Positions 1,567 to 35,487 of a DNA stretch of 64,000 bases are shown piece by piece. This stretch comes from an uncultured Actinomycetota bacterium. Lineage in GTDB: Bacteria; Actinomycetota; Acidimicrobiia; Spongiisociales; UBA4744. Each line of letters opens with the position of its first letter. Within the stretch, counting starts at the first letter, position 1. The DNA lies in the NCBI GenBank assembly GCA_963707435.1, contig CAVPPF010000005.1, positions 70,832 through 134,831 on the forward strand. The letters run 5' to 3'. The position numbers were made by a program, and so were the translations under genes. Below the pieces are notes generated by a model, which ran no database searches, had not been told where the DNA came from, and saw nothing but the letters and a program-made list of their open reading frames with translations.

Positions 1567-2565
1567 TTAGGAATCTGGATCGCCGTAGAGCGAAGACAGG
1601 CTGAGCCGGGCTTCCTGCTCCAGGAGTTTCTGGTGGTGGTAGGCAGAATCGACCACTGCCGCCAGTGGGAACTCCACCATCCGCAACGTGCGGGCTACCT
1701 GGGGAGAGAAGACCCCGGGCCGTCGCGAACCGATGGCCAGGATCCCCAGCACCTGCCCCCGGGAACGCAAGCCCATCGCGAAGAACGAAGGCCATCCTCC
1801 GGCCGAGTCGGTCTCGGAAAACTCCTCGGTTCCCGACCGCCATACGCCCAGTTCCTCGGGGCTCACCGAAATCGATGCGAGCTGCTCGAGATGGCCGGCT
1901 GCCAGGGCACGGAAATGGTCGAATTCGGCCCGGGAAAGGGCCGTATCCATGCGAATCGCCAGGCGCCGTTCGGCGGCCAGTGCTATCCCGGCCAGGTCGT
2001 AGTCCACGAACCGGCGAAGGATCAACAGCGACTCCTGCACGGTCGTCGGCAGGTCCATGGCACGTGTCGCCATCGTGACGATGTCGTTCACGATGGTCGC
2101 GTCGAACAGTTTGCGGTCGAGCAGTTCTGTCACCCGGGCGAGGACGTCGACCTGATCGAGCTGCTGTGGGTCGACCTCGCCCGTCGTCAACTCGGAAAGG
2201 GCCCGGGTGGCCCGGGCACTTCGAATCGCCGCCAGCAGTTCCTCACCAAGCGATTCCTTGGTCAGATACCCGTCCGCTCCCGACTTCTCGGACCAATACC
2301 GGTCTTCGGCAGAGTCGAGCGCCGTCAAGATCAGGATGGGAATGTGGGCAACCGAGAAGTCTTCTTTGATCAGCCGGCATGCGACGTACCCGCTCATGCG
2401 CGGCATCTTGATGTCCAGGAGCACCATGTCCGGCGGCTCTGAGTAGAACTTCTGGATGGCCTCGATCCCGTCTTCGGCGATGACTACCTCGTAGCCCGCA
2501 TTCCGGAGAAGCGAACTCACCGCAGCCCTGACGACCGGGCTGTCGTCGGCGATCAGGATCCTCAC
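1567..2565 (-). CDS. Response regulator with REC domain plus C-terminal GAF-like domain and no DNA-binding output
   Basis: 332 aa. N-terminal MRILIADDSPVVR...VLLDIKMP (CheY-like receiver). C-terminal roughly 200 aa resembles GAF. The 4-bp ATGA overlap with the upstream CheA-like gene implies an operon. Confidence 0.8.
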   Translation of the reverse strand: MRILIADDSPVVRAAVSSLLRNAGYEVVIAEDGIEAIQKFYSEPPDMVLLDIKMPRMSGYVACRLIKEDFSVAHIPILILTALDSAEDRYWSEKSGADGYLTKESLGEELLAAIRSARATRALSELTTGEVDPQQLDQVDVLARVTELLDRKLFDATIVNDIVTMATRAMDLPTTVQESLLILRRFVDYDLAGIALAAERRLAIRMDTALSRAEFDHFRALAAGHLEQLASISVSPEELGVWRSGTEEFSETDSAGGWPSFFAMGLRSRGQVLGILAIGSRRPGVFSPQVARTLRMVEFPLAAVVDSAYHHQKLLEQEARLSLSSLYGDPDS

Positions 2566-4748
2566 CGGTTCACCTCCGTGCGGTCGGCGGGATCAAACCC
2601 GGTGCGCATCTCGAGCAGCGAGTTGAGCGTGGTAGCCAGCAAGCCCTGCCGCAGGTCGGCCTTGTCGAGATAGGCGTTCACGCCGGCCGCCCATGCCCTG
2701 GCCTGGTCCTCTTCGTCGGCAACGGCCGACACCATCACGACCGGGAGCGCCGGGAGGATGTTCCGAACCGACCGAACGAGGTCGACACCGTCAGAACCCG
2801 GCATGGCGTAGTCGACGACCAGAGCATCGAACTGCTCCGACTGGAGCTTGGCCAGACCTTCATCGGCGTCGCCTGCTACCAGGGTCTCAAATCCCAGGCC
2901 GGTGAGCACCGACCCGACCAGCTGGCGCGCCCCCGCCGAATCGTCCACGACGAGAACCCGCGGCCTCGAAACAACCGAATCCGGAACGGAACGCACCCGG
3001 TCACCCAACCGGTTGGGTTCGACGACCACGACGACCTCTCCCCCGCCGAGCACAGCCGCACCGGTCAGATGGGGGGTTCCCGCCAGCACCGGACCGAGGC
3101 CCTTGACGGCGACTTGCCGCCGGCCGACGATCCTGGGCACCGTCACGGCGATCAAACCCGATCGGGTGGCCAGCACGAGAACCTCGTTGACGGGCTCCGT
3201 CTCGGGAAGCCCGACTGCGGTGGCGAAGGATGAGATCGGCAACCGTTGTCCCTGGTGGATCAACTCCATCCGTTCCTTGCCCGGCCGCACCTCAGCACCC
3301 GACAAGGCGAACGCAGCGACGACGGCAGCACCCGGAATGCCCCACTGGCGGTCCTCGGCCGAAAGGAGCAGCATGTCCTGCAGAGCCCACGACGCCGGGA
3401 GCGTCAGCATGACCGACGTGCCGTGCCCCGGACGGGAATCCACGGTGATTCCACCGTTCAGCATTTCCGCGGTCTCGGCGACCAGCGCCAGGCCGGCCCC
3501 ATCGCCGCTCAGATCGGTCGCTTCGATCGACGTCGAGAATCCGCCCCCGTACAGCAAGCGGGTCAGCTCGCCTTCCCCGGGCGTCTCGTCGCCGGTCAGC
3601 AATCCCCGTTCCCAGGCAGAATCGCGAACGGCATCCCAATCGATGCCGCAACCGTCGTCCTCGACGGTGATCACCAGATTGCTCTTGGACACCTGAGCGC
3701 GCACGGCCAGCAACGCCGTGGCCGATTTGCCTGCTGCTTCCCGCACTTCGGGTGTCTCAATACCGTGATCGATGGCGTTCACGAGCAGGTGCCGCAGCGG
3801 TTCGCGGAGATGCTCGATGATCTGACGATCGACCTCGACTTCGTCACCGGCGAGCTCAAAGCGGATCTGTTTTCCGGTTCGACGGCACAGGTAGCGAACG
3901 AATTGATGGAACGTATCGGTGATCTCGGAGAGCGGCGCGGCTACCAGCTGGAGTGCACGCATCTGGAGATCTTCGACGGCCAGATCGAGGGTTTCCACAG
4001 CGGATTCCCAGCTGGTGGCCAGCGAAGCTACCTCACGGGGATTGCTCGAAACGGCGAAGCGCAGCGCGTGGACCGCCCCCGCCAGGGCGGCGGCGTCGAG
4101 TCGAACCTCCGCAGCCCGGTTGATCAACCGGTACAGCCTCGTTGTTTCAACCCGGGTGGCCGGCCCAACCAGACCGGACTCAACCGAAGACAGCAACCCA
4201 CCGAGATCGAGCAGCTCGGGGCCCGCCATTTCGGGAACGGGTCGAGCGGGTGCCGGAGAAGGCGGGGCCGGGGGTGGCACAGGGTTCGCTTCTGCCGGTG
4301 CGGGAGCCGGCGTCGAGCGGACCGGCGGCGCCGGTTCCGGTTCGTCCGCAACTCCCAGGAAGCTCTCCAGCGCCGTCACCGCTGATTGCAGTCCGGCCGG
4401 CCGGCCGTTGGTGCCTTCGTCCATCGCCCCGAGGAACTCGGCCGCGACGGCCTTCAACACCTCGCCGAGTTCCGGGCTCGGCGCCAGGACACCCTCCGAG
4501 ATATCTCGCCATGCTGCCTCCAGCACCCGGGCCGCTTCGCCCATCTCAACGAACCCCATCACACGTGAGGAGCCCTTGATGGTGTGGGCGTCCCGGAACA
4601 AGGTTGAGAACCGGTCGGTATCCAATCGCCCGGCCATCATGGCAGCGGATCCTTCAATCAGATTTGCGGAGCGTTGCGCGACCTCATCGCGGAAAATCGC
4701 CAGGAGCTCTGCATCGTTGCCCAACTCCACGTTGAACCTCTTCTCCAT
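2562..4748 (-). CDS. CheA-like hybrid histidine kinase: Hpt(P1), Pro-rich linker, dimerization, HATPase(P4), CheW-like(P5), C-terminal REC
   Basis: 728 aa. Hpt motif DAHTIKGSSRVMGF. N-box HLLVNAIDHGIE, G1 DDGCGID, G2 GDGAGLA. A CheW-like segment. C-terminal receiver VLVVDDSAGAR...VVDYAMPG. Confidence 0.85.
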   Translation of the reverse strand: MEKRFNVELGNDAELLAIFRDEVAQRSANLIEGSAAMMAGRLDTDRFSTLFRDAHTIKGSSRVMGFVEMGEAARVLEAAWRDISEGVLAPSPELGEVLKAVAAEFLGAMDEGTNGRPAGLQSAVTALESFLGVADEPEPAPPVRSTPAPAPAEANPVPPPAPPSPAPARPVPEMAGPELLDLGGLLSSVESGLVGPATRVETTRLYRLINRAAEVRLDAAALAGAVHALRFAVSSNPREVASLATSWESAVETLDLAVEDLQMRALQLVAAPLSEITDTFHQFVRYLCRRTGKQIRFELAGDEVEVDRQIIEHLREPLRHLLVNAIDHGIETPEVREAAGKSATALLAVRAQVSKSNLVITVEDDGCGIDWDAVRDSAWERGLLTGDETPGEGELTRLLYGGGFSTSIEATDLSGDGAGLALVAETAEMLNGGITVDSRPGHGTSVMLTLPASWALQDMLLLSAEDRQWGIPGAAVVAAFALSGAEVRPGKERMELIHQGQRLPISSFATAVGLPETEPVNEVLVLATRSGLIAVTVPRIVGRRQVAVKGLGPVLAGTPHLTGAAVLGGGEVVVVVEPNRLGDRVRSVPDSVVSRPRVLVVDDSAGARQLVGSVLTGLGFETLVAGDADEGLAKLQSEQFDALVVDYAMPGSDGVDLVRSVRNILPALPVVMVSAVADEEDQARAWAAGVNAYLDKADLRQGLLATTLNSLLEMRTGFDPADRTEVNR

Positions 4749-13192: not shown

Positions 13193-13774
13193 CTACGGGT
13201 CGATGAGCTCGCCCGGCGGCATGCGGGTCACCGGTGGCTCCAGCCCTACCAGTTGCCTGACCATGTGGGCCGTTGCCCCCCACAAGACCTCTCCCTCGAG
13301 ATCGAAGAACCAGACCTTATGCTGTCGCCACAACTCAAAACGCCAGCCGTCTGCAGCGGCGAAGATATCAACCGGCGGTTCAAGAATCTTGTCGACCTCA
13401 CGCGGGGACGGTTGGAGCTGAGGGACGCTCTTGATCCACCCGACCACGGGAACAACCAGCAGGGAGTACTCGATGGTGTGTATCGCCGGGAGGAACCCGA
13501 CGACGTCGACCAGCGCCGGGACGAGCCCCACTTCCTCTTCAGCCTCCCGCAGCGCCGTCCCCACGGGACCACCGTCACCATCGTCCGGGCGCCCGCCGGG
13601 AAAGGCCAGGTGCCCGGCGTGGGTGGGCATGGTCATAGGTCGCTTCGTGAGAATGATCCGCGTCACACCTCGCTCGTCGTCGTAGAGCGGAACGAGAACG
13701 GCGGCTTGTGGCAATGGACCGGGCGGCGGGGGTTCGGGTTGGATCCCGGGAAAGCGTCTGGAGAATTCGTTCAC
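13193..13774 (-). CDS. NUDIX hydrolase (CoA pyrophosphatase NudL-like)
   Basis: 193 aa. Nudix box GGRPDDGDGGPVGTALREAEEEVGL. Confidence 0.8.
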   Translation of the reverse strand: MNEFSRRFPGIQPEPPPPGPLPQAAVLVPLYDDERGVTRIILTKRPMTMPTHAGHLAFPGGRPDDGDGGPVGTALREAEEEVGLVPALVDVVGFLPAIHTIEYSLLVVPVVGWIKSVPQLQPSPREVDKILEPPVDIFAAADGWRFELWRQHKVWFFDLEGEVLWGATAHMVRQLVGLEPPVTRMPPGELIDP

Positions 13775-13809: not shown

Positions 13810-14427
13810 ATGGATGACCTGTCGACCGCTCCCCGATTCTCGCGCCGGTTCATGCTGCGCCCGTTCAAGCGCCGTGACGCCGACGAGATGGCAGAAGCCG
13901 TGGCGGCATCGCAGATGGAGCTCAACGAGTGGCTGCCCTGGGCTCATCTCGGCTATTCGAAAAGCGATGCGATCGGCTACATCCGCGACAGCCTCAAATC
14001 GTGGCGGGAGGAACGAGCCTACGACCTGGCGATTCGCAGGCTCGACGACCCGGACCGCCATATCGGCAACATCTCGGTCTGGTTCGTTTCACGATCGTTC
14101 AAGACGGGAGAAATCGGCTACTGGGTTCGCACCGACGAGACCGCCCAGGGAGTCGCGACCGAGGTTGCGGCCCGGGCGCTCCAGATCGCCTTCGAGGAAC
14201 TCAAGATGCATCGGGTGATCCTCCGGATCGCGGTCGGCAACCGGCCCAGCGAACGCGTTGCGGAGAAGCTCGGGTTCTTCCGCGAGGGAATCCTCAGGGA
14301 GGAGATCAAAGTCCGCGGGACCTGGCTCGATCACTCCGTATGGGGACTGCTCGAACACGAGTACCGCAAGAACCTCGGGTTGTACCGGGGTCTCATCGGA
14401 GCGGGCGAGGAAGTAGTCGAGAAGTAG
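13810..14427 (+). CDS. GNAT family N-acetyltransferase (RimJ/RimL-like)
   Basis: 205 aa. Acetyl-CoA-binding region RVILRIAVGNRPSERVAEKLGF. Confidence 0.8.
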   Translation: MDDLSTAPRFSRRFMLRPFKRRDADEMAEAVAASQMELNEWLPWAHLGYSKSDAIGYIRDSLKSWREERAYDLAIRRLDDPDRHIGNISVWFVSRSFKTGEIGYWVRTDETAQGVATEVAARALQIAFEELKMHRVILRIAVGNRPSERVAEKLGFFREGILREEIKVRGTWLDHSVWGLLEHEYRKNLGLYRGLIGAGEEVVEK

Positions 14428-14460
14428 AGGTCCCGCCACCAGACGAAACGGTAGCCAACG

Positions 14461-14490
14461 AGAAGGGGCCCCCGCAGGGGCCCTTCTCAC
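14461..14490. terminator. GC-rich hairpin between the convergent GNAT and groEL genes (possible bidirectional terminator)
   Basis: agaaggggcc-cccgca-ggggcccttct. A weakly T-rich tract follows on the minus strand. Confidence 0.4.
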
Positions 14491-14507
14491 GTTCAGATGG
14501 TCGGGAC

Positions 14508-16154
<1,647 letters not shown>

Positions 16155-16445
16155 TTAGGCGATGATCGCGAGCAGGTCGCGAGAAGAGAGGATCAGATAC
16201 TCCTGGCCCTCGAACTTGATTTCGGTTCCCCCGTACTTGGAGTAGACGACCGTGTCGCCTTCCTTGACGTCCATAGGGGTGCGTTCTCCTTGGTCGTTGA
16301 CCTCTCCCGGTCCAACGGCCAGCACCTCACCCAACTGCGGCTTTTCCTTGGCCGTATCAGGTATTACCAGACCAGACGGGGTGCGGGCATCTTGATCGTC
16401 CTTGGCCTTGACGACCACACGATCACCCAATGGCTTCAATTTCAT
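16155..16445 (-). CDS. groS: Co-chaperonin GroES
   Basis: 96 aa. [13 protein letters not shown]... Confidence 0.97.
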
Positions 16446-16469
16446 AGCGGAGTCCCTCCTTCACTCGGG

Positions 16470-16526
16470 TTAGCACTCCATGGCTCTGAGTGCCAGATTC
16501 TAGCACTCTCTTTTGCCGAGTGCTAA
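16470..16526. promoter_or_regulatory. Two tandem CIRCE operators (HrcA binding sites) upstream of groES
   Basis: TTAGCACTC-N9-GAGTGCCAG (16470-16496) and CTAGCACTC-N9-GAGTGCTAA (16500-16526). Matches the CIRCE consensus TTAGCACTC-N9-GAGTGCTAA. Confidence 0.8.
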
Positions 16527-26492: not shown

Positions 26493-26873
26493 CTACGCGT
26501 CGTGCTCGCCGACGGCAACGGCGAACACCATCGCCGTCACATCCGTGTGCGTGATGGTGACGAGCACTTCGGTCACGCCAAGCTGATCGGCCCTCGCCCG
26601 TGCCGTCCCGAAGAGATTGACCCGCGGAGCGCCGCCACCGGTTATCTCGATGTCCTGCCAGCGGATCTGCCGCCACCCTGTTCCCATGCTCTTCATGACC
26701 GCCTCCTTGCCGGCAAACCGGGCGGCGTATCGGCGCGCCGGGTGGGCAAACCGGGAGGCGTAGGCTCGTTCGTGATCGGTGAACACCCGTTCGGGGAAGC
26801 GTTCGTATTTTTCGAGCAGAGCCTGAACCCGATCGATCTCGGCCAGGTCGACGCCCAATCCAATGATCCGCAT
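26493..26873 (-). CDS. acpS: Holo-[acyl-carrier-protein] synthase
   Basis: 126 aa. MRIIGLGVDLAEIDRV...FAGKEAVMKS. Confidence 0.9.
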   Translation of the reverse strand: MRIIGLGVDLAEIDRVQALLEKYERFPERVFTDHERAYASRFAHPARRYAARFAGKEAVMKSMGTGWRQIRWQDIEITGGGAPRVNLFGTARARADQLGVTEVLVTITHTDVTAMVFAVAVGEHDA

Positions 26874-27003: not shown

Positions 27004-28254
27004 TTGAACCATCTCGATGTTGTGGTCATCGGCGGCGGACAGGCCGGTCTGGGTATCGGTTACTACCTTCGAGCAGCCGAGAAGAAATTCGTCATCTTGG
27101 AGCGCGGCCGGATTGGCGAAACCTGGCGCGGTCAGCGCTGGGACTCGTTTGCAGTCAACACGCCGAACTGGGCCAACAGGCTTCCCGGCGACCCGTACGA
27201 AGGTGAAGAACCCGACGGCTTCTATCAGCGCGACGAACTCATCGACTACTTCGAGAACTACGCCGCCAAATTTGCGCTTCCGGTAATTGAGGGAGTCACG
27301 GTTACCGGCGTGGACGCCGTCGGTGCCGACTTTCGGGTGACCTACGAAGACACAGCCGGCACTATCGACACCGCGACGGCTACGAACATTGTCGTCGCAT
27401 CCGGGATGATGCAGGCACCCAAGATTCCGGGGATTCGCCGGCAGTTCCCCCAGTCGCTACTCCAGCTTCACGCCTCCGACTATCGCTCGGCAGAGAACTT
27501 GCCGCCGGGGGCGGTCGTCGTCATCGGCGCAGGACAGTCGGGATGCCAGATCTCCATGGACCTTATCCACGCCGGAAGAGACGTCTTCCTCTGCACCAGC
27601 AAGGTGGGACGGGTCCGCCGGAGGTATCGACAACGTGATGTTGTGGACTGGTGGGAGGACATGGGGTTCTGGGATGTCCCCGTCGAAGAGCTTCCGGATC
27701 CGGCGATGCAGTTCGCCGCCCAGCCGCAAGTGTCGGGGGTGGGACGGTATGGGAGCACCCTCAGCCTGCAGTCAATGGCCCGGAACGGAGTACGTCTGAT
27801 GGGCCGCCTCAGCGGCGTGGAACACGGTGTGTTGAAGACGGACGACTCCCTGGCGGAGCACATCGCCTTCGCCGACGAGCGCTCAGCGGATTTCACCAGA
27901 ATGATCGAGGATTGGATCTCCTCCAACGGCGTCAACGTTGAGCCGGTCGAGGAGGATCCCAACGATGAACCCGCCGGCCCGGAAGTCGCCCGGTCGGGGA
28001 TCACAGAACTGGACCTCAGGGCAGCCGGTGTCGGATCGGTCATCTGGTGCACCGGATTCACGGCCAACTTCGACTGGATCCATGCCCGCGTCACCGACGA
28101 CAACGGACGGCCGCTCCACCACAGAGGGGTCTCCCCCATTCCCGGGATCTATTTCGTCGGTTTTCCGTGGCTGCACTCGCGCAAATCGGGGATCCTTCAC
28201 GGCATCGACGAAGATTCCCGTTTCGTAGCAGAAGCCATCGCCGCCAGGGCCTGA
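27004..28254 (+). CDS. FAD/NAD(P)-binding oxidoreductase (flavin-containing monooxygenase / CzcO-like)
   Basis: 416 aa. Two dinucleotide-binding motifs (VVVIGGGQAG and VVVIGAGQSG). TTG start after SD GAGGAGG. Confidence 0.8.
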   Translation: MNHLDVVVIGGGQAGLGIGYYLRAAEKKFVILERGRIGETWRGQRWDSFAVNTPNWANRLPGDPYEGEEPDGFYQRDELIDYFENYAAKFALPVIEGVTVTGVDAVGADFRVTYEDTAGTIDTATATNIVVASGMMQAPKIPGIRRQFPQSLLQLHASDYRSAENLPPGAVVVIGAGQSGCQISMDLIHAGRDVFLCTSKVGRVRRRYRQRDVVDWWEDMGFWDVPVEELPDPAMQFAAQPQVSGVGRYGSTLSLQSMARNGVRLMGRLSGVEHGVLKTDDSLAEHIAFADERSADFTRMIEDWISSNGVNVEPVEEDPNDEPAGPEVARSGITELDLRAAGVGSVIWCTGFTANFDWIHARVTDDNGRPLHHRGVSPIPGIYFVGFPWLHSRKSGILHGIDEDSRFVAEAIAARA

Positions 28255-28363: not shown

Positions 28364-30190
28364 CTACTCGACCGTCACGCTCTTGGCCAGGTTGCGGGGC
28401 ATGTCGATGTCGTGGCCGAGTTCCTTGGCCACGTGGTAGGCAAGGAGTTGCAGCGGGATAATCGACAGGACCGGGCTGAGGAAATCGACGGTGCGCGGAA
28501 TGCGCAGCACATGGTCGGCGTACTTGGCAACCGCAATGTCGTCCTCGTAGGCAACGGCCACCACGCTGGCACCGCGGGCCTTCACCTCCTGCAAACCGGA
28601 GATCGTTTTGTCGTAGAGATGCGACTGCGTCAGCACGACGACGACCGGCGTACCTTCCGTGATCAAGGCCAGGGTCCCATGCTTCAGCTCCCCGGCGGGC
28701 ATCGCCTCCGAGTGCATGTAGGAGATCTCCTTCAGCTTCAAGGAACCCTCGGTCGCCACGGCATAGTCCAGGCCCCGCCCGATGAAGTAGATATCGTCGA
28801 TTCCGGCTATCCGGCGGGCGATATCGGCTATATCGGCATCCATATCCAGTACCCGCTTTGCTTTCCCGGGCAGACTCCGGAGCTCAGCGGAGAGTTCGGC
28901 CGCCTGCTCAGCAGCAATCGTTCCCCGATCGACGCCCAGACGGAGCGCGAGAAGGTAGGTGCCGATCAACATCGCCGTGTACGCCTTGGTGGAGGCGACC
29001 GCTATCTCCGGACCGGCGCGGGTGTAGAGGATGTCTGCGGCATCACGGCTGAGCGTGCTACCCACCACGTTGGTGATGGCCAGCATGCGGGACCCGAGCT
29101 CTGTTGCGAGACGGGCGGCGGCCAGCGTATCGGCCGTCTCGCCGGACTGACTGATCGCGATCGTCATGGTGCCGGGGAGAATCAACGGATCCCGGTAGCG
29201 CAACTCGTGTGCGTAGTCGATCTCGATCGGGATCCGCAATGCCTTCTCGAGCACATCACGACCGACCAGGCCGGCGTGGTAGGCCGTCCCGCACGCCGTT
29301 ATCCAGATCTTCTCGAGATTCGCCACAAATCCGTCCGGGAAATCGACTCCCTCGAGCACAACGGAGCCGTCCGGCTGCAAACGTCCTCGCAGTGTCTCTT
29401 CGATCACGTCTGGCTGCTCGTAGATCTCTTTCAGCATGAAGTGCGGGTACCCGCCCTTTTCCGCCTGACCGGCGTCCCAGGTCACCTCCATGGGGGCGCG
29501 CTCAACCGGCGTTCCATCGATGGTCTGTACCGTCGCTCCGTCCACGGTGATATCGACCATCTCACCGTCCTCGATCACAAGGACGGAGCGGGTGTAGGGA
29601 AGGATCGCCGGGATGTCGGAAGCCAGGAAGGTCTCCCCCTCACCGAACCCGACGACCAGAGGGCTGATCATCCGGGCGGCGACAATCCGCCCCGGCTCGC
29701 GAGAACTCATGACCACGACCGCATATGCCCCCGTCGCCCGGCCGATAGCCCGGCGGACCGCCTCGAGAAGGTCCCCGTCGTACTCATCGGCCACGAGGTG
29801 CACCAGCACTTCCGTATCGGTATCGGAAAGGAAGCGGTGACCGGCTTCGATCAGAGCTTCTTTGAGCGGGAGGAAGTTCTCGATGATCCCGTTGTGAACG
29901 AGCACGAAATCCCCGGACGGGTCGGTATGCGGGTGAGCGTTCACATCGTTGGGTACCCCGTGGGTAGCCCACCGGGTGTGTCCGATACCGGCCGTTCCGC
30001 CGATCGGTCGGTGCTCGAGCAGTTCGTCGAGACGCTGCATCTTCCCGGCCGCTTTGCGCACCTCAATGCGACCGTTGTCGGCGATCGCGATTCCTGCTGA
30101 GTCGTATCCCCGGTACTCGAGTCGCCGCAGGGACGAAACGAGCAGGTCCTGGGCGTCGCGCGAACCGACGTAACCCACTATGCCGCACAT
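28364..30190 (-). CDS. glmS: Glutamine--fructose-6-phosphate aminotransferase (isomerizing)
   Basis: MCGIVGYVG... with tandem SIS domains, ending VTVE. Start ATG 30190. Confidence 0.96.
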   Translation of the reverse strand: MCGIVGYVGSRDAQDLLVSSLRRLEYRGYDSAGIAIADNGRIEVRKAAGKMQRLDELLEHRPIGGTAGIGHTRWATHGVPNDVNAHPHTDPSGDFVLVHNGIIENFLPLKEALIEAGHRFLSDTDTEVLVHLVADEYDGDLLEAVRRAIGRATGAYAVVVMSSREPGRIVAARMISPLVVGFGEGETFLASDIPAILPYTRSVLVIEDGEMVDITVDGATVQTIDGTPVERAPMEVTWDAGQAEKGGYPHFMLKEIYEQPDVIEETLRGRLQPDGSVVLEGVDFPDGFVANLEKIWITACGTAYHAGLVGRDVLEKALRIPIEIDYAHELRYRDPLILPGTMTIAISQSGETADTLAAARLATELGSRMLAITNVVGSTLSRDAADILYTRAGPEIAVASTKAYTAMLIGTYLLALRLGVDRGTIAAEQAAELSAELRSLPGKAKRVLDMDADIADIARRIAGIDDIYFIGRGLDYAVATEGSLKLKEISYMHSEAMPAGELKHGTLALITEGTPVVVVLTQSHLYDKTISGLQEVKARGASVVAVAYEDDIAVAKYADHVLRIPRTVDFLSPVLSIIPLQLLAYHVAKELGHDIDMPRNLAKSVTVE

Positions 30191-30231
30191 GGCAGTCTCC
30201 TTTGCCTGGTGATGGAGACCGGAAGGAACTA

Positions 30232-30406
30232 CGGGTCCGCGTACGGTCCCGTCCACTCCGATGTGGCCTCTGTCACCGGGGTCACCCCCGGGCTTTGCTC
30301 CACACCGTCACGACCGTGGTCGCCGAGAGGGCATCCGCCGAAACTCGATACTCCCTCTTCCTCGTCACCCGCACCGCCTGTAAAGGGGCGCGGGCCGGGC
30401 GCTGCT
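30232..30406 (-). ncRNA. glmS ribozyme: glmS ribozyme (GlcN6P-activated self-cleaving riboswitch) in the glmS 5' UTR
   Basis: The minus-strand transcript reads ...AGCGCCCGG...GGGUGACGAGGAAGAGGGAGUAUCGAGUUUCGGCGGAUGCCCUCUCGGC...AAGCCCGGGGGUGACCCCGG. This matches the conserved core GACGAGGA-GGAG-UAUCGA-UUUCGGCGGAUGCC-UC-CGGC and the P4 stem of the glmS ribozyme family. Confidence 0.85.
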
Positions 30407-30509
30407 TGATGTGTCCGTTCCCGGTCACTTTGTCCAGCGAAGACTAGCGCTGCACGTGACGTTCACAACCGTGAATGCTCTGCGGCGGCCGGCGGGTCGA
30501 CTTCCCCGG

Positions 30510-31859
30510 TCACTCGTCGCCGACGGCTCCAAGCTCACCACGACTGATCTCGACCAATTCGTCGGCGATCGCGGCGGCTTCCGTGCCGGAAGAAGCTTCA
30601 ACCATGACCCGCACCAGCGACTCGGTTCCCGACGCCCGAACCAGAATGCGTCCCTCGTTCTGGAGGCGGGCCTCGGCATCGCGTACGGCCGCCCAGAGAA
30701 GCTCCGCCCCGTCGAGCTTGTGCTTGTCGGCAACATGAACATTGCGCAACACCTGGGGGTACTCGGTAATGGTTTCCTTGCGCAGCTCGCGAAGCTCTCT
30801 GCCACTCGACGCCATGACTTCGAGCAACCGCACCGCCGTGAGCAACCCGTCCCCGGTGCTGGCTCGATCGGCGAGAATGACGTGTCCGGACTGCTCTCCT
30901 CCGAGAACGGCCTTGTGCTCACGCATTGCTTCGAGCACGTACCGGTCACCTACCTGGGTCTCGACAACATCGATCTCGAGGCGCTCCATGGCCCTTCGGA
31001 AACCCAGGTTGGCCATCACCGTCGAGACGACGATGTTGTTCTTCAGTCGGCCCGCTTCTTTCATGTGCCGGGCGATGATGGCCATGATGACATCCCCGTT
31101 GGCAACCGCTCCGTCCTCATCTACCGCGATCAAGCGATCGGCGTCTCCATCGAATGAAAACCCGAGCCGGCCTTTGGCCCGGTCGGACAGATAGCGCGGG
31201 TGGGTGGCGCCGCATCCGGCGTTGATGTTCGTCCCATCGGGTTCCGCCGCAAACACCTCGACTTCGGCCTTGAGCCTGCGGAAGAGTTCGGGTGCGGTGC
31301 GATAGGCCGCCCCATTTGCGCAGTCCAGAGCGATGGAGATCCCCCGCAGGGTGTACGGCATCGACTCGCGGAGATGAGCCAGATAGCGGTCGTCGGCTTC
31401 TGCCATCCGGAAGGTGGTGCCGATTCCGTCGTCGATGGCGACTTTCCAGGGCGGCCCGCGCCGGATGCGCTGGTCGATACGGTCTTCCTCGTCATCGGAG
31501 AGCTTCGATCCATTCCGCCCGAGCAGCTTGATGCCGTTGTCCGCGGCCGGGTTGTGCGAGGCGGAAACCACCACGCCCAATGCCGAACGGGTATCGGAAG
31601 TGAGGAAGGCGATGCCGCCGGCGGGCAGTACGCCCACGTCGATCGTATCGATGCCGACCGATTGAAAACCGGCCTGGAGCGCGCTCGAGAGCATCTCACC
31701 GGATCGTCGGGTATCCCGGCCGACGAGAACCTGCCCGCCCGGTATGAATTCGCCTGCGGCGCGGCCAACGGCCATTGCGAGGTCCGCCGTCAATTCGACG
31801 TTGGCGCGGCCGCGGATCCCATCGGTTCCAAAGAGCCTGCGGCCTTCTGCCGGGAGCAT
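30510..31859 (-). CDS. glmM: Phosphoglucosamine mutase
   Basis: 449 aa. GTDGIRG start; phosphoserine loop SASHNP. Confidence 0.95.
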   Translation of the reverse strand: MLPAEGRRLFGTDGIRGRANVELTADLAMAVGRAAGEFIPGGQVLVGRDTRRSGEMLSSALQAGFQSVGIDTIDVGVLPAGGIAFLTSDTRSALGVVVSASHNPAADNGIKLLGRNGSKLSDDEEDRIDQRIRRGPPWKVAIDDGIGTTFRMAEADDRYLAHLRESMPYTLRGISIALDCANGAAYRTAPELFRRLKAEVEVFAAEPDGTNINAGCGATHPRYLSDRAKGRLGFSFDGDADRLIAVDEDGAVANGDVIMAIIARHMKEAGRLKNNIVVSTVMANLGFRRAMERLEIDVVETQVGDRYVLEAMREHKAVLGGEQSGHVILADRASTGDGLLTAVRLLEVMASSGRELRELRKETITEYPQVLRNVHVADKHKLDGAELLWAAVRDAEARLQNEGRILVRASGTESLVRVMVEASSGTEAAAIADELVEISRGELGAVGDE

Positions 31860-31861
31860 CC

Positions 31862-32254
31862 CTAGCGCTTGGTGTACTGCGGCGCCCGGCGAGCCTTGCG
31901 GAGCCCGTACTTCTTGCGTTCCACCCGCCGAGCATCGCGCCGCAGGAAGCCGGAGCGTTTCAGCAGGGGACGAAGGTCGGGGTCGATCGTGATCAGCGCC
32001 CGGGCAATGCCAAGCCGAAGAGCATCCGACTGGCCCGTCGTGCCGCCCCCGTGGAGGGTGGCGTGGATGTCGTAGCGGCCCTCGAGGGAGGCGACCCGGA
32101 CCGGCTCGAGTACACGGAGTCGCTGCGCCATTGCGGGGAAATAGTCCTCGAGTGTTTTGCCGTTGAGAACGACACTGCCGGTTCCGTCGTACAAGCGGAC
32201 ACGAGCGACCGACTCCTTGCGGCGACCGGTTGCCTGAACGAGCGGAGCTGTCAT
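31862..32254 (-). CDS. rpsI: 30S ribosomal protein S9
   Basis: 130 aa, ending RRAPQYTKR. Confidence 0.97.
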
Positions 32255-32712
32255 TGCGTTTCCACCTTTCGAATCTTCAAATCGAGGGGTTGGGGCGATT
32301 GGGCTCTATGAGGATGCTCGGGCCCGGCGTTGACCTTGAGCTTGCGCAGCATCTGCCTTCCCAAACGGTTCTTGGGGAGCATTCCGCGCACCGCCCGTTC
32401 GATGATCGTCTCCGGCCGGCGTTCCCGCAACGACTCGAAGCTCTCGGCTCGGAGGCCGCCCGGGTATCCGGAGTGCCGGTAGTAGATCTTGCCCTGGCTC
32501 TTGTCGGAGGTGACCGCCACCTTCTCGGCGTTGATCACAACGACGAAGTCTCCCGTATCCACATGAGGCGCCACGATCGGCTTGTGCTTGCCCCTGAGGA
32601 TCTGGGCGACTTCGGAGGCCAGGCGGCCGAGGGGTAGGTCGGTGGCATCGACCACGAACCAGGCGCGCTCGATGTCATCCGTTTTGGGCGAAAAAGTCTT
32701 TTGCAGCCGCAT
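32251..32712 (-). CDS. rplM: 50S ribosomal protein L13
   Basis: [23 protein letters not shown]... Start ATG 32712. Confidence 0.95.
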
Positions 32713-32868
32713 CTGAACCTCGCGAAGAAAGGAGCCCCGGGATGCCGGAGCGGCCATATGGTAGGCGCGGAACCGTCCTTGTGGCAATTCGGTCCTGCGC
32801 CTCGTGTTAGGCGAAGAGCCGATTTCGCCCGGAAGCGCGGGCCAACCCCGGAAGCCGGACGCAGCTTG

Positions 32869-34935: not shown

Positions 34936-35487
34936 TCAGTTGCGAGGAACGAGCAGCTTGCCGGCCGGCCGGCTCAGACTCGGGCGGTCCTTCCATGCGG
35001 CCACTTCTTCCAGGGCGAACCACCGGACCCCGGTCGTTCCATCACCGGCCGTTGCGTTCGGCGAGCCGGCGATGAACCCGAAACGGACGTCGAGGTGGTC
35101 GTGGGCAGGACCGTCCTCTCGTGACGGGAACCGGTGCACGTCGAGATCGAGAAGGCCGAATGCTTGCAGTTCCTCGAGTCCGGTTTCCTCGACCACCTCG
35201 CGGCGGGCCGCTGTCTCGAGATCCGTATCGCCCGGCTCGACATGCCCGCCCGGTTGCAGCCATTCTTTGAGCTTCGTGTGGTGTACCAGGAGCAGAGAAC
35301 GCCGGTCCGGCGAGACCACGAACCCGCTGGCGGTGAAGTGGCCGGGATTGAAGTGGAACCGCGAGAGAGCAGCACCGGACGTGTCCAGGAGAGCCAGCAT
35401 CGCATCGAGATAGCCGGACTCGAGATCGTCCAAGGGTTGGTGAGCAGCGAGCAGCGATCGAAGCGAAGCCAGACGTGGATCAGTCAT
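34936..35487 (-). CDS. NUDIX hydrolase
   Basis: Nudix box GGHVEPGDTDLETAARREVVEETG. Confidence 0.8.
   Translation of the reverse strand: MTDPRLASLRSLLAAHQPLDDLESGYLDAMLALLDTSGAALSRFHFNPGHFTASGFVVSPDRRSLLLVHHTKLKEWLQPGGHVEPGDTDLETAARREVVEETGLEELQAFGLLDLDVHRFPSREDGPAHDHLDVRFGFIAGSPNATAGDGTTGVRWFALEEVAAWKDRPSLSRPAGKLLVPRN

Follow-up and report, generated by a model that had tools for sequence, protein, structure and literature searches.

The glmS locus

We analysed a stretch of 64,000 nucleotides (the window) of contig CAVPPF010000005.1 from an uncultured Actinomycetota bacterium (assembly GCA_963707435.1, positions 70,832 to 134,831), and describe here the 5' leader of its glmS gene. Between glmM and glmS lies a glmS ribozyme, an RNA family that senses glucosamine-6-phosphate (GlcN6P) and cleaves itself; its 3' end is 59 nt before the glmS ATG at 30190, on the same strand. 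Around it we identified a candidate long-range helix, here called P0, and a hairpin predicted to sequester the Shine-Dalgarno (SD) sequence of glmS (Table 1). The window has a G+C content of 58-67% and is core chromosomal, with a ribosomal-protein cluster, rpoA, secY, guaA/guaB, alr, tsaB/D/E, groEL and acpS. An initial reading of the letters (the sequence-only reading) had placed glmS downstream of the element, with glmM and rplM-rpsI nearby, and Pfam confirmed this context; it had named neither P0 nor the hairpin at the SD.

When one genome for each of 185,579 species was searched, the closest GlmS proteins came from metagenome-assembled genomes of Acidimicrobiia (64-76% identity). Named proteins at 86-98% identity are likewise Acidimicrobiia by label, and a protein identical to the window GlmS exists in public databases. 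The host, guessed at first to be Actinobacteria-like, is thus correctly placed at the phylum level, and the closest GlmS proteins give the class as Acidimicrobiia.

Table 1. Features of the glmS locus in the window, and P0 strands (5' strand / 3' strand) in the subgroups of Acidimicrobiia-type leaders
Feature	Position	Strand	Description
rplM	32251-32787	minus	
rpsI	31862-32254	minus	
glmM	30510-31859	minus	phosphoglucosamine mutase, Pfam PGM_PMM I-IV; directly upstream of glmS
Putative glmS promoter	30441..30468	minus	-35-like TTGTGA 30468..30463, 16-nt spacer, -10-like TAGTCT 30446..30441
P0 5' strand (leader)	30417..30426	minus	GACCGGGA(AC); 15 nt upstream of the cleavage site
Predicted self-cleavage site	between A(-1) 30403 and G(+1) 30402	minus	in invariant AGCGCC; from RF00234 alignment position
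glmS ribozyme	30250..30403	minus	RF00234, own model, helix pairing, covariation
P2.2	30401-30398/30339-30336	minus	4 bp, CGCC (after the cleavage site) with GGCG
P1	30395-30387/30375-30367	minus	9 bp
P2.1	30364-30363/30347-30346	minus	2 bp, CG of GACGAGG with CG of AUCGA
P2	30358-30353/30331-30326	minus	6 bp
P3	30325-30322/30314-30311	minus	4 bp
P3.1	30319-30316/30256-30253	minus	4 bp pseudoknot, CCAC with GUGG
P4	30306-30300/30266-30260	minus	7 bp
P4.1	30291-30286/30281-30276	minus	6 bp, GNRA loop GUGA at 30285-30282
Hairpin ACGGGaCCG-UACG-CGGaCCCGU	30231..30252	minus	directly after the ribozyme; in minimum free energy (MFE) and centroid folds
P0 3' strand (linker)	30217..30229	minus	GUUC-cuu-CCGGUC; contiguous part UUCCGGUC = 30224..30217
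Candidate anti-SD	30214..30221	minus	CGGUCUCC; 8-bp helix with GGAGACUG, shuffle p 0.02-0.03; 5 nt (CGGUC) in common with P0 3' strand
Ribosome-binding region	30193..30202	minus	contains the SD and the anti-SD partner GGAGACUG (30200..30193)
SD	30202..30197	minus	AAGGAG; 6 nt before ATG at 30190
glmS	28364-30190	minus	608 aa glutamine--fructose-6-phosphate aminotransferase; MCGIVG start; Pfam GATase_6/7 (class-II amidotransferase) and two SIS domains
P0, subgroup A			window, L161-L163: GACCGGGA / UUCCGGUC; distal GAAC/GUUC becomes GGAC/GUCC in L163
P0, subgroup B			L001, L002, L164: GAGAUCGGCAC / GUGCCGGUCUC
P0, subgroup C			L003: GAGACCGGG / CCCGGUCUC
P0, subgroup C			L168 (L169 similar): GGAGACCG+ACGGC / GCCGU+CGGUUUCC
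P0, subgroup D			L004, L007, L081: GACCGGAG / CUCCGGUC
P0, subgroup E			L165-L167: (A)ACCGAGAGC / GCUCUCGGU(U)
P0, subgroup F			Actinomarina, ~41% G+C: UAACGAGCA / UGCUCGUUG
P0, subgroup G			L170, L171: GAGACCGGG(A) / (U)CCCGGUCUC; ~55 nt further upstream through an inserted 11-12 bp hairpin

A complete glmS ribozyme

Judged by its sequence, the element is almost certainly a genuine glmS ribozyme in the 5' leader of glmS. When 4227 Rfam families were run with cmscan, RF00234 (glmS ribozyme) gave the sole match above the gathering score in the whole 64 kb. This match extends over 30414..30250 of the minus strand, spans model positions 1-167 of 167 without truncation and scores 90.4 bits (E 1.4e-19), which is 2.4 times the gathering score of 37. 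The sequence-only reading had proposed this comparison as a check, together with the P1/P2/P2.1 pseudoknot core, and we found P1, P2, P2.1 and P2.2 all formed by standard pairs. The minus strand does contain the catalytic-core strings it had pointed to: GGGUGACGAGGAAGAGGGAGUAUCGAGUUUCGGCGGAUGCC (30370..30330) and GGGGGUGACCCC (30289..30278). Only the span it gave, 30232-30406, is off, by a few bases at either end: the ribozyme proper extends from the cleavage site to ~30250, and the 18 extra nucleotides at the 3' side are part of a separate hairpin (30252..30231).

Using the helix definitions of the Bacillus subtilis ribozyme (PMC11602151), all eight helices pair in the window ribozyme, with 42 of 42 pairs standard. 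We aligned 24 ribozymes, 18 of Acidimicrobiia type and 6 others, in which 88.1% of the cells are paired, against 39-47% when the partners are slid by 1-3 columns. Both-sided changes were found in 32 of the 42 pairs, and none of 500 shuffles reached the observed values. Among the individual helices, P2 is 91.7% paired and shows both-sided changes in all 6 pairs, as do 6 of the 7 pairs of P4 and all 6 of P4.1, while P3.1 covaries between CCAC/GUGG, CUCAC/GUGAG and CUGC/GCAG. P2.1 (100% paired) and P2.2 (96.9%) are nearly invariant and therefore show no covariation, in agreement with the published description of the family.

The conserved AGCGCC (cleaved after its first A), GACGAGG, AUCGA and CGGCGGAUG are all intact in the window. 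Positions A1 G2 C3 G4 C5, G38-G44, A55-A59 and C64/G66-G69 are invariant in the 24 ribozymes, so that AGCGC at the cleavage site never changes. A covariance model of our own, R1, gives the window ribozyme 134.8 bits. Membership in the family implies that GlcN6P-dependent cleavage would occur between A30403 and G30402, and feedback by GlcN6P through RNA cleavage in this lineage, as the sequence-only reading had it, is a reasonable inference on the same grounds.

Occurrence of the ribozyme in Acidimicrobiia and elsewhere

The ribozyme was detected above the gathering score in 20 of 20 Acidimicrobiia-type glmS loci, which span 68-95% GlmS identity. These are the window, five GTDB species genomes, two Candidatus Actinomarina genomes, one metagenome contig (L081, a further close relative with upstream DNA from the metagenome scan) and 11 contigs fetched by protein look-up; besides the window they carry the labels L001-L004, L007, L075, L076, L081 and L161-L171. 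The order glmM-glmS is kept in all 11 look-up contigs. Across 160 loci from genome and metagenome scans, R1 found the ribozyme in 29, belonging to Acidimicrobiia, Actinomarina, Firmicutes, one Deinococcales locus and unlabelled metagenome contigs. Over the same 160 loci it found none in those of Acidobacteriota, Nitrospirota, Armatimonadota and the like, which form the majority. Two matches from a pattern scan of viral contigs fall inside coding DNA and are due to chance. The ribozyme is thus fixed in the Acidimicrobiia-type clade and not exclusive to it. As the lineage marker that the sequence-only reading had seen in it, it holds for every Acidimicrobiia-type locus examined, but it also occurs in Firmicutes and Deinococcales loci. 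RF00234 already includes some Actinobacteria; our literature searches found no paper that mentions a glmS ribozyme in Acidimicrobiia.

Several of these loci depart from the usual form. The ribozyme of L171 carries an insertion of ~45 nt in the P4/P4.1 region (L171 ~560-610) and still scores 73 bits. In L001, L002 and L164, P1 is cut down to a 4-bp stem with a UUCG tetraloop (GCCC-UUCG-GGGU); P1 is the site of the receptor for the L4 tetraloop (PMC11602151). A GC-rich metagenome contig with a GlmS 58% identical (L092, 1078-1231) has G in place of A at position -1 (GGCGCC) and a linker of 269 nt before glmS. L012, L030, L032 and other loci labelled Firmicutes have no glmS ribozyme within 3 kb upstream of the GlmS homologue. 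Related Firmicutes loci do have it, and the ribozyme-free GlmS homologues may be second copies or differently regulated.

A long-range helix enclosing the ribozyme

P0 pairs a leader segment 4-25 nt upstream of the cleavage site with a segment of the linker ~20-28 nt before the start codon. The window's P0 joins GACCGGGAAC (30426..30417) to GUUCcuuCCGGUC (30229..30217) on the minus strand. Its 5' strand lies on the leader side of the cut and would be off the mRNA after cleavage. We recognized the helix in all 20 Acidimicrobiia-type leaders, where it has at least three unrelated sequences (Table 1); it is very probably a real, conserved structure. The strongest argument for this, from comparison of the sequences, is the complete replacement of the helix sequence in groups E and F.

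We scored the best contiguous, ungapped leader/linker helix in preference to RNAduplex, which on 43-nt leaders also gave a leader/linker signal, blurred by promoter sequence and multi-segment duplexes. The best such helix falls on P0 in 18 of the 20 sequences, the exceptions being L170 and L171, where it is further upstream. These two loci have an extra hairpin of 11-12 bp, ~50-60 nt upstream of the cleavage site, which separates the site from the P0 5' strand. The median shuffle p was 0.038 for the 20 leaders and 0.75 for a comparison set of 18 glmS ribozymes from Firmicutes, Deinococcales and others (Mann-Whitney 1.2e-5), none of which showed a leader/linker helix like P0. For the 15 sequences with a CCGG core, counted in a fixed register, 81% of the cells are paired, against 29-53% when slid. 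With 20 of 20 Acidimicrobiia-type leaders and 0 of 18 others, P0 is a sharper lineage marker than the ribozyme. Two other roles were considered for the helix and rejected, that of a terminator or antiterminator (it has no U-tract, and there is no minus-strand terminator) and that of an RNase III processing stem, for which 8-13 bp is too short.

The ribosome-binding site and the putative promoter

In the window and its nearest relatives (L161, L162 and L163), an anti-SD is predicted to pair with the SD region in a hairpin of 8-9 bp (shuffle p 0.007-0.03; the search was anchored on the SD) with conserved stems and a variable 13-nt loop. This SD hairpin is present in both the MFE and the centroid folds of the window. 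An SD-sequestering helix is also clear in L002, L169 and L171, and weak or ambiguous in E, F and L007; across the Acidimicrobiia-type leaders it is stronger than in the other ribozymes (Mann-Whitney 7e-5). In 15 of the 20 sequences (groups A, B, C, D and G), the 3' strand of P0 and the anti-SD have 4-6 nt in common. Since the leader strand itself contains the SD motif (GGAG or GAGAC) in groups B, C, D and G, leader and SD compete there for the same pyrimidine stretch. Between the ribozyme and this region, GC-rich relatives have, on reading by eye, a hairpin of different sequence at the place occupied in the window by 30252..30231.

Sixteen of the 20 sequences have a TANNNT hexamer, 5-24 nt upstream of the leader strand, and the proximity of this -10-like motif puts that strand close to the transcript's 5' end. 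In the window, transcription would start near G30434. These sequences suggest that glmS has a dedicated promoter despite its position directly downstream of glmM, and that the 5' fragment released by cleavage is only ~12-35 nt long. Because it draws on the conserved TANNNT motif, and because a generic sigma-70 scan called no promoter upstream of glmS, the promoter is offered here as putative only.

A proposed cleavage-coupled translational switch

The overlap of P0 with the anti-SD suggests that the locus is probably a glmS ribozyme with a translational expression platform. The explanation that we favour on balance, with some reserve, is a functional glmS ribozyme combined with a clade-specific SD switch coupled to cleavage. 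Its key component, P0 acting as an anti-anti-SD that is released by cleavage, is somewhat less secure, and we regard it as quite possible. During transcription P0 would form first and the leader would occupy the anti-SD, so that the SD is open and glmS translated. In the uncut RNA, the pre-folded ribozyme would bind GlcN6P and use it as the cofactor for self-cleavage. When GlcN6P is abundant, cleavage between A30403 and G30402 would disconnect the leader of 20-30 nt; the SD would then displace it, the leader would be lost and the anti-SD would close on the SD, stopping translation. The untranslated glmS mRNA would probably be degraded afterwards, and the switch would act together with, or in place of, the attack of RNase J on the 5'-OH product known from Bacillus.

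SD accessibility was modelled with the ribozyme replaced by an inert hairpin and with the leader trimmed to start 2 nt before P0. This trimming was needed, as untranscribed -10 boxes (for example TATCCT) paired with the SD when 35-nt leaders were used. In the model, the leader raises the probability that the SD is free in 19 of the 20 sequences, by a median of ~49-fold (26-fold in the window), whereas its effect in the comparison ribozymes is ~1-fold (Mann-Whitney 4.8e-5). After cleavage, this probability has a median of 10^-5.4, against 10^-2.6 in the comparison leaders.

Several observations weigh against the switch. In the accessibility model a stand-in replaces the ribozyme and the trimming of the leaders refers to P0 itself, and the contrast with Firmicutes leaders in SD sequestration could largely reflect G+C content. 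Unconstrained folds of the window keep the SD hairpin before and after cleavage and do not contain P0. Forcing P0 there takes 3.3 kcal/mol; a self-folded form of the leader (GUGaCCG-GGAA-CGGaCAC, 30411-30428, minus strand), seen in these folds, competes with it. Only 10 of the 20 sequences have P0 within 1 kcal/mol of their optimum, in nested folds that are imperfect, having no P2.2 pseudoknot and leaving G1-C5 free to mispair. Given that native folds do not show P0, a switch in the window would have to be kinetic and co-transcriptional. A GC-rich duplex of 8-12 bp would not be quick to fall apart alone, and release must rely on strand displacement by the SD. The candidate anti-SD and the P0 strand are separate in groups E (L165-L167) and F (Actinomarina), where P0 and the SD helix could coexist as a pseudoknot. 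Cleavage, the transcription start and the effects on translation are, moreover, all inferred. The thermodynamic modelling supports the switch at the level of the clade, by way of a proxy, while its support in the window itself is weak and equivocal.

Alternative explanations

The alternative that survives best is a canonical ribozyme whose sole output is mRNA decay as in B. subtilis, where RNase J acts on the 5'-OH end, with P0 real but structural. P0 could then be a closing clamp that insulates the ribozyme from its GC-rich flanks and aids its folding, or a base-paired 5' end that shields the uncut mRNA from 5'-end-dependent RNases until cleavage, while the SD hairpin would merely set a low basal rate of translation. 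Decay by RNase J1 is the only mechanism established for the glmS ribozyme family, and P0 encloses the whole ribozyme and the hairpin that follows, as a closing stem would. The prediction of the SD hairpin in both states of the window, with P0 not the thermodynamic optimum, and the separation of anti-SD and P0 strand in groups E and F are also as this explanation would have it. A pure clamp, however, need not hit the anti-SD, as P0 does by 4-6 nt in most of the sequences, nor need its leader strand copy the SD, as happens in B, C, D and G; a clamp of this kind is missing from the 18 other glmS ribozymes, which fold all the same, and predicted SD accessibility depends on the leader in all but one of the 20 sequences. 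No RNase J was found among the open reading frames of the 64-kb window scanned against Pfam. We consider decay as the only output a real but rather doubtful possibility.

It is improbable that the complementarity between leader and linker reflects only ancestry and chance in GC-rich sequence, with selection acting on the ribozyme alone. The shuffle p-values of single sequences are modest (0.001-0.24), P0 is missing from half of the unconstrained folds, and groups A-D and G share by descent a palindrome-like CCGG core; within this supergroup only 3 of 11 pairs show both-sided changes. Chance would nevertheless have to account for the completely different sequences that groups E and F have at the same relative position, and for p-values of 0.004-0.006 in Actinomarina, in spite of a G+C content of ~41%. 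Leaders from other supergroups do not fit: in a swap test, the mean helix score was 22.4 for cognate leader and linker and 14.8 between supergroups. The pairs flanking the core covary, taking the forms AU, GC, CG and GU, and single changes within the core are wobble-compatible (C to U opposite G). Combining the median p of each of the 7 subgroups by Fisher's method gave 1.8e-7, compared with 0.97 for the 13 comparison ribozymes left after dereplication, although the 20 sequences are related and these p-values overstate their independence.

An inactive relic, matching the Rfam model but cleaving no longer, is very improbable. Our literature searches found no activity data for any Acidimicrobiia glmS ribozyme, which would allow such a view, but the intact core (AGCGC, GACGAGG, AUCGA and CGGCGG, all alignment-invariant) and fully paired helices that covary among lineages with GlmS only 68-76% identical require continued selection on the fold.

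Other genes in the window

A flavin-monooxygenase-like gene (27004-28254, plus strand) lies between glmS and acpS (26493-26873, minus strand). As acpS follows glmS directly in the relatives L162, L164, L168 and L169, the flavin-monooxygenase-like gene looks like a local insertion. Two NUDIX hydrolase genes are present on the minus strand, at 13193-13774 and at 34936-35487, the latter between the truA region and rpoA. Either of them, if it encoded an RppH-like RNA pyrophosphohydrolase, would bear on 5'-end-dependent decay. Elsewhere, a CheA-like hybrid kinase (Hpt, HATPase, CheW and REC domains; 2562-4748) adjoins a REC-domain protein (1567-2565) and a HisKA kinase (563-1441), all on the minus strand, and an open reading frame of 865 aa without a Pfam match (13929-16526, plus strand) is the shadow of groEL (14508-16133, minus strand).

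Significance and comparison with known systems

By itself, the ribozyme is a routine member of a known family and adds little, as the family has been curated for two decades and the Acidimicrobiia copy can be detected by any Rfam-based annotation. What P0 adds is a join between the part of the leader removed by cleavage and the anti-SD, and with it a concrete, testable answer to how regulation could work without RNases that target a 5'-OH. Literature searches, which did not extend to catalogues of glmS-ribozyme variants, found no description of this arrangement and no paper linking a glmS ribozyme to an anti-SD. We tentatively propose that Acidimicrobiia glmS ribozymes carry an undescribed expression platform, in which the mRNA's own leader would serve as a 'GlmZ' in cis and would be amputated by GlcN6P-triggered cleavage, turning translation off. 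If true, direct control of the translation machinery, not by way of decay by RNase J, would be a first for a glmS ribozyme and possibly for any natural self-cleaving ribozyme. Such a platform would explain ribozyme regulation in lineages where a 5'-OH end is no decay signal, and would constitute both a natural counterpart of engineered ribozyme-SD switches and a cis parallel to the enterobacterial GlmZ small RNA circuit.

With the glmS ribozymes of Firmicutes (B. subtilis, B. anthracis and Thermoanaerobacter tengcongensis; RF00234), the window ribozyme has in common the core AGCGCC (cut after its first A), GACGAGG, AUCGA and UCGGCGGAUG, the helices P1, P2, P2.1, P2.2, P3, P3.1, P4 and P4.1 with its GNRA loop, and the position directly upstream of glmS. 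In B. subtilis, too, glmM lies just upstream of glmS. The established output of glmS ribozymes is degradation of the 5'-OH product by RNase J1. The 18 leaders from Firmicutes, Deinococcales and others differ in that they lack a leader/linker helix (p 0.97), show no SD-sequestering helix that is significant, and have linkers of 21-269 nt and a relatively open SD. P1 is a further difference, being reduced to the 4-bp UUCG form in part of the Acidimicrobiia clade.

The GlmY/GlmZ-RapZ-RNase E circuit of E. coli acts on the same gene and responds to the same signal, GlcN6P. GlmZ works by opening a hairpin that sequesters the SD. One account describes GlmZ as activating the mRNA of glmS through base-pairing, with RNase E cutting its base-pairing sequence when it is not required (PMC4737144). 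Under the proposed model the logic would be the same, a pairing activator of glmS translation being inactivated by an endonucleolytic cut at high GlcN6P. GlmZ, however, is a small RNA that acts in trans, needs Hfq and is cut by a protein enzyme recruited by RapZ, whereas the proposed switch would use the 5' leader of the mRNA itself as activator and have the ribozyme make the cut. The resemblance is functional; there is no sequence relationship, and the locus is not a member of that system.

In synthetic bacterial ribozyme-SD switches, cleavage usually frees the SD and turns expression on. Those built with hammerhead or twister ribozymes have in common with the proposed switch that self-cleavage alters the accessibility of the SD (PMC5052635). 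They are engineered, whereas the switch proposed here would be natural, and cleavage would turn expression off by removing the anti-anti-SD. Classical translational riboswitches, which work through an anti-SD and an anti-anti-SD, have three mutually exclusive elements between sensor and start codon, a feature that the proposed switch would share. In these the ligand shifts a reversible equilibrium, whereas in the Acidimicrobiia leaders the anti-anti-SD would be situated on the 5' side of the sensor, and its removal, by strand scission, would be irreversible.

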